32,000 nt of DNA from Streptosporangiaceae bacterium. GTDB taxonomy: Bacteria; Actinomycetota; Actinomycetes; Streptosporangiales; Streptosporangiaceae. The stretch spans positions 93,161 through 125,160 of the forward strand of contig DATGGU010000012.1 of assembly GCA_035308365.1 (NCBI GenBank), read 5' to 3'. Below, piece after piece: positions 9,348 to 21,319 of the stretch; positions within the stretch are counted from its first letter, which is position 1; every line of letters begins with the position of its first letter. A program made the position numbers and the translations under genes. Below the pieces are notes generated by a model. The model did no database searches, was not told where the DNA came from, and was given only the letters and a program-made list of their open reading frames with translations.

Positions 9348-10529
9348 GTGATTACTGTGGATGCCGTAGCCTTTCCCCGGCCGATGACTCAAGACGGCCT
9401 GCCCGATCCCCTGCTGCTCGAGCTGGCCGCGGACAACCCCGTGCTGCCCGTCGCCGGGCCAGGCGGCAAGGCGTGGCTGATCACCGGCCACGAAGCCGTT
9501 CGCGAGGCGCTGTCCGAGCCCTCCCGGTTCACCAGCGTCATCGATCCGGCGGTGACCGACGCCAGGGCCCGCGCGGGTGTGTCGATGGTGGGGCTGGACC
9601 CACCCGACCACACCCGGGTACGGAAGCTGGCCGCGAAGGCCTTCACCGCCCGGCGCATCCAGGGGCTCGTGCCGAGCGTGGAACGTGTGGTCACCACGTT
9701 GCTGGACGCGATGGCGGAGGCCGGCCCGCCGGCCGACCTGGTGACGTCGCTCGCGGTGCCCCTCCCGCTGCACATGATGTGCCAGATGCTCGATCTGCCG
9801 GCCGAGGACCAGCCCGGCTTCCTGCGCTGGTCCGACGTGTTCACCGGCATGAACACCGGCTACACGATGGAGGAAGTCGCCGACGCCAACGACAAGCTGC
9901 ACGCCTACATGCTCGATCTGGCGGCGCGGCGCAGGAAGCACCTGGGCGAAGACCTGTTGTCCGATCTTATCCGCGCCCGCGATGGCGAGGACGCCCTGAC
10001 CGAGCAGGAACTGCTCAACACGATGGTCCTGTTGCTGGTGGCCGGGCACCAGACCACGGTGCGCGCCATCGCCAGGAGCGTGCTGGTCCTGCTCCACTCG
10101 GGTCAGTGGAAGCGGTTCGCCGCGGCCGAGGTCACCGCCGAGCAGGTGGTCGAGGAGGCGTTGCGGCACCAGACGCCGATCGACACCGGCCTGTTCCGCC
10201 GGGCTGCCGTGGACACCGAGATCGCCGGTGTCCAGATCAAGGCCGGCGAGCAGGTGTTCCTCAGCGTGCACCTGGCCAACTTCGACCGCAACGCCTGGCA
10301 CGAGCCGCACGTGTTCGACCCCGGCCGCGGTGACCAGCGGCACCTGGCATTCGGCCACGGTGTCCACTTCTGCCTCGGCGCGCCGCTGGCCAGACTGGAG
10401 CTCAGCACCGCCCTCAGCCTGCTGGCGGCCCGGTTCCCCGGCCTGCGGATGGACGTCCCGCTTGACGAGCTGACCTGGACGGTGGGTTCATGGCTCAACA
10501 GCCTGGTCGCTCTTCCCGTCACCTGGTGA
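9348..10529 (+). CDS. Cytochrome P450
   Basis: I-helix 'LLVAGHQTTVR', 'EEALRHQTPIDTGLFRRA' (ExxR region nearby) and heme-binding loop 'FGHGVHFCLGAPLARLEL'. Confidence 0.93.
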   Translation: MITVDAVAFPRPMTQDGLPDPLLLELAADNPVLPVAGPGGKAWLITGHEAVREALSEPSRFTSVIDPAVTDARARAGVSMVGLDPPDHTRVRKLAAKAFTARRIQGLVPSVERVVTTLLDAMAEAGPPADLVTSLAVPLPLHMMCQMLDLPAEDQPGFLRWSDVFTGMNTGYTMEEVADANDKLHAYMLDLAARRRKHLGEDLLSDLIRARDGEDALTEQELLNTMVLLLVAGHQTTVRAIARSVLVLLHSGQWKRFAAAEVTAEQVVEEALRHQTPIDTGLFRRAAVDTEIAGVQIKAGEQVFLSVHLANFDRNAWHEPHVFDPGRGDQRHLAFGHGVHFCLGAPLARLELSTALSLLAARFPGLRMDVPLDELTWTVGSWLNSLVALPVTW

Positions 10530-10703
10530 CGCCTGCCCATCCGATGTGCGACACTCCGCAATGCGTATCTTGGCCAATCGCTCGCGATGCTATTCCAGAA
10601 AGGACGCCAGCCCTGCCCACCCCACCAGGCTGGCCGCTATCACCGCGCGGACGGCGGAATAATGAATTCCGCCGTCCCCGCCCGTTAACTGAATGGTCAG
10701 CCG

Positions 10704-12197
10704 ATGAGCATCGAAATCAGTGCTGCGGACCGGGCGAAGCTACTGCATGCCCTGGTGGAAGAGATCGAAAACTATCTTGATACCGCGGCCGATGACACTG
10801 GCCGCTCGCCGGTGGCCGATGCGGACGTCGACGAGCTGCTGGCCGCCTTTGATTTCGATCAGCCGGTAGCCGCGGCCGATGCCCTGGATCTAGCCATTCG
10901 CGGATTGCGTGATATGCAGCCGCGCACCCGGCACCGGCGGTATTTCGGATTGTTCGATGCCACCCCCACGACCATGTCAATTATCGGTGAAGCGCTGTCC
11001 GCCACCTTCAACCCATGCCTGGCCACCCGCAACGGGAGCCCGTTCGGCATCGCCGCGGAGGAAAAGCTGGTTGCCGCATTTGGCGAGAAATTCGGTTATC
11101 CGCCCTGCGAGGTGGACGGAATCCTGACCAGCGGCGGGTCGGAGACGAATCTTTCGGCCATGCTGATGGCCCTTACCCACCGGATTCCCAGCTATCCGCA
11201 GACCGGCCTGATCGGGCTGGCCAGCCGTCCGGTCGTTTACGTTTCGCCGGAGGCCCACCCATCGGTGCCGCGTGCGGCCCGCCTGACCGGCCTGGGTGCC
11301 GAGTCGGTGCGCGAGGTTGAGACCGACTGCGCGCAGCGCATGGACCTGGCCGCGCTGGAGAAGATGATCGTCGCCGACCAGCGGGCCGGGCTGACGCCGG
11401 TTGCCGTGGTGGTGACCGCGGGCACAACCGGCGCGGGCGCCATCGACCCGATCGACGGAGCCGCCTGCATCGCTGCCAGGCACGGGCTGTGGCTGCACGT
11501 CGATGCGGCGTGGGGCGGCGCGGCCGCGCTGCTGCCCGATCCCGACCCGGCATTCCAGGGCCTGGCCAGGGCGGACTCGCTCACCTTCGACCCGCACAAG
11601 TGGATGTCGGTGCCGCTTGGCCTGGGAATGCTGCTCACCCGCCATCGTGGCCTGCTGGCCAGGACCTTCTCGGCCGGCCCGACATTTCTCGACGCCGATG
11701 GGCGGGAGGCGGAGCCATTCAGCCGGTCGCTGCGCTGGTCCCGTAGCTTCGCAGCACTGAAACTGCTGCTTTCACTCGCGGTGACCGGCTGGCAAGGGTT
11801 CGAGGAAACCTTGCGGCAGCAGATGAGGCTGGCCGACGAATTGCGCAAAGGGCTGGCCGGATCGGGCTGGCAGATCGTCAATGACACACCACTGCCGCTG
11901 GTTTGTTTCCTGCCGGCCGACCGGGCCGAACAGCACCCGCACAGATTGCGACTTATCGCCAGGGCCATCAATTCCACCGGTGACGCTCATATCTTCGTGG
12001 TCAAGTCCGGCGGACGGCACGTGCTGCGAGCCTCCATCACGAACTACGCGACCACGGAAGCGGACGTCGTGGCGCTGATCGGCCTGCTCGACGACGCGGC
12101 CCGGCGGTCACAGGGCTTACCCGGCCCGTCACACAACCGGCCCGCATGGGAGGTGCCGCCGCGATGGTCGATACGAAGACCGCGAGCCCCCCGCTGA
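10704..12197 (+). CDS. PLP-dependent group II amino-acid decarboxylase
   Basis: 'ILTSGGSETNLSAM', 'VVVTAGTTGAGAIDPI', 'LWLHVDAAWGGAAAL' and 'SLTFDPHKWMSVPLG' (PLP lysine). Confidence 0.88.
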   Translation: MSIEISAADRAKLLHALVEEIENYLDTAADDTGRSPVADADVDELLAAFDFDQPVAAADALDLAIRGLRDMQPRTRHRRYFGLFDATPTTMSIIGEALSATFNPCLATRNGSPFGIAAEEKLVAAFGEKFGYPPCEVDGILTSGGSETNLSAMLMALTHRIPSYPQTGLIGLASRPVVYVSPEAHPSVPRAARLTGLGAESVREVETDCAQRMDLAALEKMIVADQRAGLTPVAVVVTAGTTGAGAIDPIDGAACIAARHGLWLHVDAAWGGAAALLPDPDPAFQGLARADSLTFDPHKWMSVPLGLGMLLTRHRGLLARTFSAGPTFLDADGREAEPFSRSLRWSRSFAALKLLLSLAVTGWQGFEETLRQQMRLADELRKGLAGSGWQIVNDTPLPLVCFLPADRAEQHPHRLRLIARAINSTGDAHIFVVKSGGRHVLRASITNYATTEADVVALIGLLDDAARRSQGLPGPSHNRPAWEVPPRWSIRRPRAPR

Positions 12198-20511: not shown

Positions 20512-20626
20512 CCGCATCGGCGGTCCGTATTCGGCGCACTATTAGAATGATCTTTGCGCATAGCTGCTTGAGCTGCGGTGACGCTGCCGGCTGGAAGGAT
20601 TGGAATAAGGATCTTAGGATCGTGGC

Positions 20627-21319
20627 ATGGAACGCTCCTCGCCAGCCAATTCGCCGGGCCAAACCGGAGATCTCGTCAGGTCGACTCTGCCCAGCCGCCA
20701 GCTGGAGCTTTCGCCGGTCCTGCGCAAGTTCCACCGCGCCATTCTTAACCTTTTTCTCAGCACCGGCCGGCCCCCGGGGCACAATGAACTGCGGGCACCG
20801 GCCGCTGAGCTGGGACTGGACGCCGGCGAGGCGATGCGCGAGCTGGCCCGGGTGGACCTGGTGCACGCCGACGCCGGCGGCCGCATCACTGTGGCCTACC
20901 CCTTCTCGGGCGACGACCGGGGGATCCACGTCCAGCAGGCCGATGGCCCGGGTGTGTGGGCGATGTGCGCCATCGACGCCCTCGGCATCCCGCAGATGTC
21001 CGGCCGCGACGTGGTGATCACCGCCACCGATCCGGCCAGCCACGAACCGGTCACCGTAGAATCGCGCGACGGCCAGCTAACCTGGCAGCCGCGCAGCGCC
21101 GTCGTCCTGGTGGCGAACAACGGCCACAGCGGGACCAGCGCCGAGTGCCTCTGCCCACTGATCACATTCCACACCACCGAGCAGAACGCGCTTGACCACC
21201 TCGCCGCCCAGCCCGGCGTCACCGGCCAGGTCGTGTCCCAGGCAAAGGCATACGAACTCGCCGGAGCCACCTTCGGCTCCCTGCTCACCAGCCAGCCCGA
21301 ACCCGCCCCCGAGCGCTAA
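20627..21319 (+). CDS. MerB-like alkylmercury (organomercurial) lyase family protein
   Basis: 'GRPPGHNELRAPAAELGLDAGEAMRELARVDLVHADAGGRITVAYPFS', 'GVWAMCAIDALGIPQMSGRDVVITA' (Cys and Asp of the WCALDTL-type motif) and 'SAECLCPLITFHTTEQNALDHLAAQPGV'. Confidence 0.77.
   Translation: MERSSPANSPGQTGDLVRSTLPSRQLELSPVLRKFHRAILNLFLSTGRPPGHNELRAPAAELGLDAGEAMRELARVDLVHADAGGRITVAYPFSGDDRGIHVQQADGPGVWAMCAIDALGIPQMSGRDVVITATDPASHEPVTVESRDGQLTWQPRSAVVLVANNGHSGTSAECLCPLITFHTTEQNALDHLAAQPGVTGQVVSQAKAYELAGATFGSLLTSQPEPAPER

Follow-up and report, generated by a model that had tools for sequence, protein, structure and literature searches.

We analysed a 32,000-nucleotide (nt) stretch of a Streptosporangiaceae genome (contig DATGGU010000012.1, positions 93,161 to 125,160), referred to here as the window. 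Our subject is the gene run at positions 9348–21319 of the window, in which predicted tailoring enzymes are followed by a protein resembling a fusion of HgcA and HgcB, its companions, and a MerB-like protein. The window is approximately 70% GC, and genes were told from shadow open reading frames (ORFs) by third-position GC (GC3) analysis and then assigned with Pfam and NCBIfam. All 11 genes of the run lie on the + strand. A first-pass annotation had described the genes from P450 to MerB-like as co-directional, and profile matches in Pfam and NCBIfam bear out both the orientation and the predicted identity of all 11, which are as follows.

9348–10529, + strand: cytochrome P450 (Pfam p450, 110 bits).
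10704–12197, + strand: group-II pyridoxal-phosphate-dependent amino-acid decarboxylase, PLPdc (Pfam Pyridoxal_deC, 207 bits).
12164 (or 12146)–13450, + strand: MFS_3 (EntS-like) exporter (Pfam MFS_3, 137 bits; ribosome-binding site GGGAGG).
13469–14728, + strand: GT1 (MGT/EryCIII-like) glycosyltransferase (Pfam UDPGT and EryCIII-like_C).
14725 (or 14746)–15642, + strand: GT8 glycosyltransferase (Pfam Glyco_transf_8, 98 bits).
15639–16232, + strand: sm1, a membrane protein of 197 amino acids (aa), last in the tailoring operon (ATGA overlap with GT8).
16308–16748, + strand: sm2, a membrane protein of 146 aa, first in the cassette (ribosome-binding site GAAGGAGG).
16754–17434, + strand: CpaM, a class-I S-adenosylmethionine (SAM) methyltransferase (NCBIfam NF043040, 254.5 bits against a cutoff of 180).
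17410–18498, + strand: HgcAB-like fusion (NCBIfam NF043039, 301.8 bits against a cutoff of 285; Pfam CdhD and Fer4).
18508–20511, + strand: P1B-type heavy-metal ATPase (TIGR01525, 504 bits against a cutoff of 346).
20627–21319, + strand: homologue of MerB-family carbon-metal lyases (Pfam MerB, 92.7 bits against a cutoff of 27).

The genes are tightly packed, and each of the overlaps listed in the first-pass annotation is found in the sequence. PLPdc, the first gene of a tight tailoring operon, overlaps the MFS gene by 34–52 nt (read from the sequence), GT1/GT8 and GT8/sm1 share ATGA overlaps at 14725 and 15639, and CpaM overlaps the HgcAB-like gene by 25 nt. Short spacers separate sm2 from CpaM (5 nt) and the HgcAB-like gene from the ATPase (9 nt). 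Apart from the real gaps, all junctions are overlaps or spacers of 5–18 nt. The four true gaps are those between P450 and PLPdc (174 nt), between sm1 and sm2 (75 nt) and between the ATPase and MerB-like genes (115 nt, 56% GC), and the divergent region 5' of the P450 gene, which faces away from an ArsR-rhodanese regulator gene.

Several start sites needed attention. The methyltransferase had been placed at 16499; its start moves to GTG 16754 on two grounds, the GC3 frames and the genes called in near-identical contigs, and the sm2 start was corrected to ATG 16308, preceded by the ribosome-binding site given above. GT1 probably starts at ATC 13469, since the conserved N-terminus IKVLFFVIPAHSD precedes the first canonical start in both the window and the related locus L092, and the MFS/GT1 gap is therefore 18 nt rather than 144. 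Automated GT1 calls begin at GTG 13595 and give 377 aa rather than about 419. Between 13469 and 13594 there is no ATG, GTG or TTG 5' of the conserved N-terminus, and an ATC occupies the orthologue start position in the window and L092, which suggests a non-canonical start missed by gene callers. For GT8, gene callers take the alternative start at 14746. The gene order is the same, almost base for base, in three near-identical soil-metagenome contigs and recurs in the related species L092, L093 and L099 at 71–97% amino-acid identity, so it is no assembly artefact.

Two candidate regulatory signals lie in the gaps.

16229–16258, + strand: promoter-like site, CTGACA-18-TATCAT (sigma-70-like consensus scan, 10 of 12 matches).
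10645–10681, + strand: hairpin with 16-nt arms in the gap between P450 and PLPdc (inverted repeat, 94% complementary).

The promoter-like site is the best sigma-70-like match of a scan over 8300–24600. It falls in the sm1–sm2 gap, which at 53% GC is richer in AT than any other part of the run, and both hexamers are kept in L092 despite drift in the flanking bases. The site also overlaps a 24-nt direct repeat, namely its first copy, at 16234; the second is at 16268. The hairpin is conserved in position in L092 and L093; its 71-nt context folds at -34.7 kcal/mol (z = -5.44), and it is either a terminator lacking a T-tail or an operator. Since the gaps, the promoter-like site and the hairpin break it, the run reads, as sequence, as four units: P450; PLPdc-MFS-GT1-GT8-sm1; sm2-CpaM-HgcAB-ATPase, which we refer to as the cassette; and MerB-like. 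The stretch from 9348 to 21319 is thus not a single operon in the sense of a run free of regulatory breaks and inherited as a whole. The earlier proposal of a single pathway holds for the overlaps and coupling within sub-blocks; coupling does not span the entire run. Promoters or terminators splitting the run had been named as evidence that would tell against that proposal, and the promoter-like site and the hairpin 3' of P450 supply it at least in part.

The cassette proteins belong to recognizable families. CpaM is a "corrinoid protein-associated methyltransferase" (NF043040) with a SAM-binding fold; it lies immediately upstream of the HgcAB-like gene on the same strand, and both proteins score above curated NCBIfam cutoffs. 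In the fusion, a corrinoid-binding domain at the N-terminus is followed by a membrane domain and, at the C-terminus, a 2x[4Fe-4S] ferredoxin domain. Its corrinoid domain is homologous to CFeSP, with a profile match to the CFeSP large subunit (4djd, 2.8e-18). In our alignment the cap-helix Cys and the surrounding NVWCA are invariant. The full motif is NVWCASAGG here and NVWCAAKGG in distant relatives, as against N(V/I)WCA(A/G/S)GK, and motifs of the NVWCASAGG type lie outside the Hg-MATE high-stringency motif set (PMC10087281). The HgcA model (NF040863) gives 130.8 bits against a cutoff of 275 and aligns to residues 37–180 only. On the HgcB model the protein reaches 38 bits, below the cutoff of 99; its ferredoxin domain is part of the fusion and terminates in ...CPVDAIS, without the CC that normally closes HgcB (bioRxiv 10.1101/2022.07.06.499078). 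Because the HgcA score and the HgcB tail are off and the cap-helix motif agrees only in part, we assign the pair on sequence grounds to the named HgcAB-like/CpaM families and not to true HgcAB.

The two outer cassette proteins also carry conserved features. Near its N-terminus, the small membrane protein sm2 has a conserved Cys-Cys pair; it also has an Arg-rich stretch, and its orthologues lie 5' of CpaM in L001, L003, L004, L084, L085, L087 and L099 with the elements CC, RRRxxxRR, WRL and W(Q/H)P preserved. The ATPase has the P-type core motifs DKTGT and GDGIND. Its motif in transmembrane helix 4 is ITPCAF, with TPC invariant in 12 orthologues; the (C/S)P(C/H) motif of this helix is absent and Pfam finds no HMA domain, the two features by which a known metal subclass would be assigned. 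An additional Cys in the last transmembrane helix (FHCGSF) is unconserved, orthologues having FHAASF, and was not used as evidence.

We scanned an alignment of HgcAB-like proteins against one genome per GTDB species, obtained 502 relatives and examined the best 80; a metagenome scan with the single protein returned six loci only. CpaM is directly upstream of the HgcAB-like gene on the same strand in 71 of the 80 loci, and four of the nine exceptions are explained by a contig end. The 80 loci span Chloroflexota, Myxococcota, Acidobacteriota, archaea and others. Outside Actinomycetota, no other window gene accompanies the CpaM-HgcAB pair among these best 80 of 502, and the one neighbour that recurs is a TetR regulator gene (22 loci), after which come ordinary metabolic genes.

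The picture in actinomycetes is that of a larger unit. Ten other actinomycete loci were available as DNA (L001–L005, L085 from Streptomyces sp. CNQ-509, and L087–L090) and one contig, P0009, as gene calls only. All have the order (sm2)-CpaM-HgcAB-ATPase, sm2 being detected in five of the loci and called on P0009. A divergent GntR gene lies upstream in 8 of the 10 and a DUF169 gene downstream in 5, and P0009 has both. MerA-like genes are nearby in six loci, a MerB-family gene in five, and ArsR in eight by tblastn, of which stricter clustering groups four. MerA matches the TIGR02053 equivalog at 571–585 bits in L001, L004 and L085, and a canonical MerB (265 bits) is present in L085. In that Streptomyces genome (CP011492) the genes run GntR-sm2-CpaM-HgcAB-ATPase-DUF169, with merA, merR and merB alongside. 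The GntR-type cassettes possess their own conserved TTGACA/TAGGACAA promoter-operator 5' of sm2 and have a conserved CCATTGACATAGGACAAGT element in common upstream of this gene. Within the 10 kb recovered around these ten cassettes there is no P450, PLPdc, MFS, GT1, GT8, sm1 or selenoneine (sen) gene.

DUF169 genes connect this group with the tailoring genes. They follow the cassette ATPase in L085, L003 and L088, and precede PLPdc-MFS-GT1-P450 in L097 and L098. Both groups align over their full length, with visibly more than half of positions identical. The DUF169 genes, which have several conserved Cys residues, lie at 1–540 in L097, 637–1344 in L098 and 13191–13898 in L085.

A complete set of selenoneine genes occurs in the window itself, and SenA (481 bits against 420), SenB (360 against 300) and SelD (335 against 125) all score above cutoff. 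They lie outside 9348–21319: senAB is at 4942–7257 and selD at 26345–27286, 19 kb apart with the studied run between them, so that the three genes do not form a contiguous cassette. Kayrouz et al. are said to have seen no clear instance where a natural-product cluster includes selD. In the window, unlike the sen cluster (SenA/SenB/SenC, Kayrouz et al. 2022), selD is not contiguous with senAB.

These settings are relevant to the idea that CpaM and the HgcAB-like protein form a corrinoid methyltransferase for a non-metal compound, with the ATPase and sm2 serving another need. In the window, the substrate would then be an intermediate of the cluster or a selenium compound that SenB/SenA make. Such an idea draws on the TetR, acyl-CoA dehydrogenase, short-chain dehydrogenase (SDR), hydratase and amidase genes around the pair in other phyla, on the tested organisms with fused HgcAB that do not methylate mercury, and on the presence of senA, senB and selD in the same window. 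Against this, a Cys-Cys membrane protein and a heavy-metal ATPase belong to the same unit as the pair in actinomycetes, with MerA, MerB and ArsR nearby, and the other actinomycete cassettes have no sen gene within 10 kb, where recovered. We think an organic substrate quite improbable.

The remaining genes of the run were traced through relatives together with three flanking genes.

8522–9178, - strand: ArsR-rhodanese fusion regulator, divergent from P450 (Pfam HTH_5 and Rhodanese).
21536–23521, - strand: AMP-binding ligase, convergent with MerB-like (Pfam AMP-binding, 199 bits).
24537–24917, + strand: ArsR/SmtB metalloregulator (NF033788, 84.6 bits).

Decarboxylase homologues led to five informative contexts, and PLPdc-MFS-GT1 is conserved as a unit in L084, L094, L097, L099 and L100. 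L099 (71–75% identity) has the window order PLPdc-MFS-GT1-GT8-sm1-sm2-CpaM-HgcAB. L084 (66–83% identity) has orthologues of GT1, MFS, PLPdc, AMP-ligase, P450, the ArsR-rhodanese regulator (68% identical) and a PhnD-like plus ferritin-like pair; these surround sm2-CpaM-HgcAB-ATPase-MerB-like in changed order, with the PLPdc operon on the opposite strand. L094 and L100 (60–77% identity) share BTAD-PLPdc-MFS-GT1 and a second glycosyltransferase gene, inside which the L094 contig ends and after which L100 continues with sm1 and P450. In both, the AMP-ligase is followed directly by a MerB-like gene 53–58% identical to that of the window, the two genes overlapping in L100. L097 and L098 have DUF169-PLPdc-MFS-GT1-P450. 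No cassette is present in the DNA recovered for L094, L100 and L097. An sm1 orthologue (51% identical) follows the second glycosyltransferase in the cassette-less L100, and sm1 therefore belongs to the tailoring operon; it has no Pfam match, and a comparison with the 181-aa membrane protein at 23933 showed no similarity.

The P450 has a separate history. Its orthologues (67–71% identity) in L084 and L094 lie at another location and adjoin a radical SAM gene. There, a 92–95-aa ORF, the P450 and the radical SAM gene (approximately 490 aa) form a conserved trio (L084 13822–16842, L094 32–3074). The trio looks like part of a ribosomally synthesized and post-translationally modified peptide (RiPP) system, and the window retains only its P450. 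The "terpenoid" label given to the run in the first pass is weak: the orthologues of P450, PLPdc and the glycosyltransferases in L084, L094 and L100 come without terpene genes in the available flanks.

MerB-like and the AMP-ligase are old companions of the tailoring genes. AMP-ligase orthologues are found at 74–77% identity in L084, L094 and L100, and the ligase is one of the conserved genes of the biosynthetic core. In the cassette-less L094 and L100 the ligase lies directly upstream of MerB-like and is coupled to it, so MerB-like belongs ancestrally with the ligase and the biosynthetic set. Its triad Cys114-Asp117-Cys176 (CAIDA plus Cys176) is conserved and aligns with Cys96-Asp99-Cys159 of MerB/MerB2, and its profile matches in the PDB are MerB2 (5c17, 2.6e-18) and MerB (1s6l, 6e-13). 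It remains below the MerB equivalog cutoffs (56.4 against 193 for NF009710; 50.1 against 200 for NF033555) and below that of SaoL, a MerB-like selenoprotein lyase (NF040728, 41.8 bits against 140). Pfam and NCBIfam detect no MerA in the 32-kb window, and the gene is not part of a mer operon. When MerB-like itself was searched against the PDB with phmmer, only spurious cyanovirin matches came up. We also considered a marinacarboline-like McbA/B/C trio of AMP-ligase, MerB-like and PLPdc, with MerB-like as a Pictet-Spenglerase, and rejected it; the profile matches only MerB2 and MerB. The ArsR gene at 24537–24917 is 62–78% identical to ArsR genes in L001–L005, L085, L089 and L090, is of the type seen beside merA in other cassette loci, and is a candidate regulator.

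In L095 (Actinomadura sp. 9N215, 3131–14343), a more distant PLPdc homologue (55% identity) has as its neighbours an AMP-ligase, a tryptophan halogenase, a radical SAM gene, two TDO-like genes and a gene for a MerB-family protein of 189 aa. Proteins of the MerB family may be recurrent in tryptophan- or amine-derived clusters.

The cassette behaves as a discrete insertion or deletion, as judged from L084, where approximately 6.6 kb (MbtH, two ABC-transporter genes and the cassette) separates the AMP-ligase and MerB-like genes that are adjacent in L094 and L100. In a neighbour-joining tree of concatenated CpaM, HgcAB and ATPase (1180 columns), the window, L092 and L084 are united in 200 of 200 bootstraps. 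On the strength of this clade, the cassette joined the cluster family once, and we rejected independent recruitment on more than one occasion. It follows that the window and L084 arrangements are not independent evidence of function. The cassette is retained in the cluster family across four diverged lineages (window, L092, L099 and L084) and two arrangements. It adjoins MerB-like in all three lineages with a visible junction, L099 being cut off before that point, and the adjacency of ATPase and MerB-like survives the L084 rearrangement.

Such retention is one of the observations that speak for a single pathway, in which CpaM/HgcAB-like and MerB-like would tailor, or give self-protection against, a metabolite of the P450, decarboxylase and glycosyltransferases, for instance through the introduction or removal of a methyl-heteroatom or carbon-heteroatom bond. 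The co-directional genes with their several overlaps, the ancestral place of MerB-like in the biosynthetic set and the DUF169 subfamily, a second bridge between the cassette and PLPdc-MFS-GT1 sets, favour it as well. The internal promoter-like site and hairpin, the opposite strand of PLPdc-MFS-GT1 relative to the cassette in L084 and the single acquisition of the cassette all run counter to it. So do the homologous clusters missing one half, which the first-pass annotation had itself named as contrary evidence and which are found at least in part: the ten actinomycete cassettes, and some 70 CpaM-HgcAB pairs, lack the tailoring genes, and three clusters (L094, L100 and L097) lack the cassette in the recovered DNA. 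We regard one shared pathway as rather unlikely.

The same insertion history could instead mean that a mobile heavy-metal resistance cassette has landed in a region rich in gene clusters and is functionally unrelated to MerB-like and its other neighbours. In all other settings the cassette is autonomous, with a regulator of its own, it entered in a single event, and the region is a mosaic in which a terpene/sen block is also inserted relative to L084. Mere juxtaposition accords less well with the position of the cassette beside MerB-family genes in two unrelated settings and with an adjacency of ATPase and MerB-like that outlasts the L084 rearrangement. We consider it unlikely.

With moderate confidence, we favour an account in which the run is a mosaic of independently evolving units, one of them a cassette inserted once, and in which the cassette takes part in a proposed making and breaking of organometal compounds. 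The mosaic architecture is seen directly in the relatives, and its units are probably transcribed independently. The P450 stands alone as a unit. PLPdc-MFS_3-GT1-GT8-sm1, together with the AMP-ligase and MerB-like, belongs to a recurrent actinomycete small-molecule cluster, which probably makes and exports an amine- or amide-type glycoside. The cassette sm2-CpaM-HgcAB-like-ATPase is self-contained, with a predicted promoter of its own, and was inserted once just upstream of MerB-like.

We infer the chemistry of the cassette and the identity of its substrate as a metal. In the HgcA-like domain, the Cys-ligated corrinoid would be reduced to Co(I) by the ferredoxin domain, and CpaM would load a SAM methyl group onto the corrinoid, as in the cobalamin re-methylation of methionine synthase. 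The same logic, a low-potential electron plus SAM giving methyl-Co(III) on a protein-bound corrinoid, is proposed here by analogy with methionine synthase reactivation and CFeSP. The methyl group could then pass to a thiophilic metal or metalloid held on the vicinal Cys pair of sm2, which would stand in for the C-terminal Cys-Cys tail of HgcB that is missing from the fusion. Membrane transport of the metal, or of its product, would fall to the TPC-type P1B ATPase. The MerB-family lyase next door, with its intact Cys-Asp-Cys triad, may be able to reverse the carbon-metal bond; if MerB-like can cleave such bonds, cassette and lyase would form an organometal make-and-break unit. The cassettes in genuine mer loci of other actinomycetes are a parallel for this proposed unit.

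A functional link between the cassette and MerB-type lyases is plausible because MerB-family genes adjoin the cassette in two settings that are unrelated, namely canonical mer loci (L001, L002, L004, L085 and L088) and the cluster with its own MerB-like gene. For Nitrospina hgcA-like loci, Villar et al. (bioRxiv 10.1101/648329) report MerR, DUF169, a methyltransferase of the UbiE type and a YHS protein that binds metal. Compared by this published description, they parallel the CpaM, DUF169 and metal regulators seen here and differ in having an unfused HgcA and no P1B ATPase or sm2, and in belonging to a different phylum. The DUF169 bridge and the Nitrospina context point the same way, in favour of the link. 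The first-pass suggestion that the organometal-type enzymes act on, or protect against, a metabolite made locally survives in part: organometal-type chemistry may be tied to the cluster, with MerB-like ancestral and the cassette retained, and nothing shows action on a sugar or terpenoid product.

Several points weigh against the make-and-break account. Two cultured archaea with fused HgcAB, Pyrococcus furiosus and Methanococcoides methylutens, make no methylmercury (PMC10087281; 10.1101/2022.11.21.517362). Methylation of a metal with cleavage of the product next door looks futile. A TPC motif without an HMA domain fits, by its sequence, no ATPase subclass of known metal specificity. Outside Actinomycetota, the CpaM-HgcAB pair adjoins TetR and metabolic genes and not metal genes, so a metal substrate may be actinomycete-specific, or wrong. 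Given the single joining, persistence of the cassette could reflect inheritance and not selection. The promoter-like site at 16229–16258 is a consensus match only, and transcription may read through from sm1 into sm2.

A further variant joins the cassette more closely to its surroundings. It would be a SAM-driven corrinoid machine methylating a soft metal or metalloid in aerobic soil bacteria, recruited in this lineage with a MerB-family lyase, next to selenoneine genes, into a natural-product cluster. The cluster would then make, use or detoxify an organometal(loid) or methyl-selenium compound. This variant seems to us very doubtful.

Beyond the run, the window contains terpene-type genes interleaved with senA and senB.

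1948–3651, - strand: SHC-like class II cyclase.
3679–4653, - strand: UbiA-type prenyltransferase.
7301–8332, - strand: polyprenyl synthase.

A SenA with a 350-aa N-terminal extension (776-aa ORF from 3907) was considered and discarded, its upstream part being an antisense shadow of the UbiA gene by GC3 frames and translation; SenA is a protein of 431 aa from 4942, in agreement with gene calls in L092 and L093. L084 lacks the terpene/sen block between its ferritin-like and ArsR-rhodanese genes, and the block is therefore another insertable module. The PhnD-like binding protein and the 395–406-aa ferritin-like protein with a TusA-like N-terminus (window 3–1893, L084 16976–18986) are 82–83% identical between the two loci. 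With 5977 homologues at E<1e-5, this pair is found very widely among actinomycetes, and it probably marks a conserved chromosomal neighbourhood, not a cluster function. Directly 3' of selD on the same strand, at 27369–29230, come an MreB/Mbl-family gene (307 bits) and one for a 4'-phosphopantetheinyl transferase; such surroundings are uncommon for an actin-like gene.

A common operator was sought among the intergenic regions of the window, and only short GC-rich or borderline k-mers were found, none convincing. The 11-mer ACCGGTCTTTA occurs both between UbiA and SenA (4875–4885) and between the polyprenyl synthase and ArsR-rhodanese genes (8425–8435), with a chance expectation of approximately 0.03 for the pair, and could be a common operator or coincidence. 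The spacer between MerB-like and AMP-ligase (21309–21531, 76% GC) contains three copies, 56–84 nt apart, of a C-rich repeat of about 47–56 nt, each with a GCACGG...CCGTGC hairpin; these may be bidirectional terminators or a small repeat element. A search for island markers gave no Rfam riboswitch match and no tRNA.

The proteins of the cassette can be compared with three known systems. The HgcA/HgcB mercury-methylation system, reportedly described by Parks et al. in 2013, shares with the window a CdhD/CFeSP-family corrinoid domain, a cap-helix Cys in NVWCA, a membrane domain and a 2x[4Fe-4S] ferredoxin partner. The window proteins differ from it in being fused into one polypeptide, in having NVWCASAGG in place of N(V/I)WCA(A/G/S)GK in the cap helix, and in lacking both the HgcB Cys-Cys tail and an N-terminal CC/CU extension. 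They are also paired with CpaM, in an aerobic-type soil actinomycete. The fused HgcAB-like proteins of Pyrococcus furiosus and Methanococcoides methylutens (NF043039) agree with ours in family, domain order and CpaM neighbour; unlike them, the Actinomycetota pair is extended to four genes by a Cys-Cys membrane protein and a TPC P1B ATPase, and is linked to mer genes or a MerB-like lyase. As in actinomycete mer operons, there is a MerB-family Cys-Asp-Cys lyase and an ArsR/SmtB regulator 62–78% identical to merA-adjacent ones. Unlike those operons, the window has neither MerA nor a canonical MerB, and its MerB-like gene is tied to the AMP-ligase in relatives. A survey of mer genes reports that genomes with MerB only encode no HgcAB homologues (PMC8261052). 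We found no description of the four-gene actinomycete cassette, or of its association with mer or MerB genes, in the searchable literature.

Fused HgcAB-like genes are routinely left aside in surveys of mercury methylation, because the few organisms tested make no methylmercury. What is new here is that the HgcAB-like/CpaM pair of Actinomycetota comes with a Cys-Cys membrane protein and an unusual metal ATPase in a fixed unit of four genes, and that this unit lies repeatedly beside MerA and MerB, or beside a MerB-like lyase. The run also carries a caution for genome mining, in that a long, co-directional and overlapping series of genes can still be a mosaic of separate units. The four-gene unit is present in at least one sequenced Streptomyces strain, sp. 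CNQ-509, and the locus and its relatives offer a testable lead on the function of HgcAB-like proteins. If the cassette does methylate mercury or another metal under oxic conditions, this would bear on the origin of methylated metals in soils.

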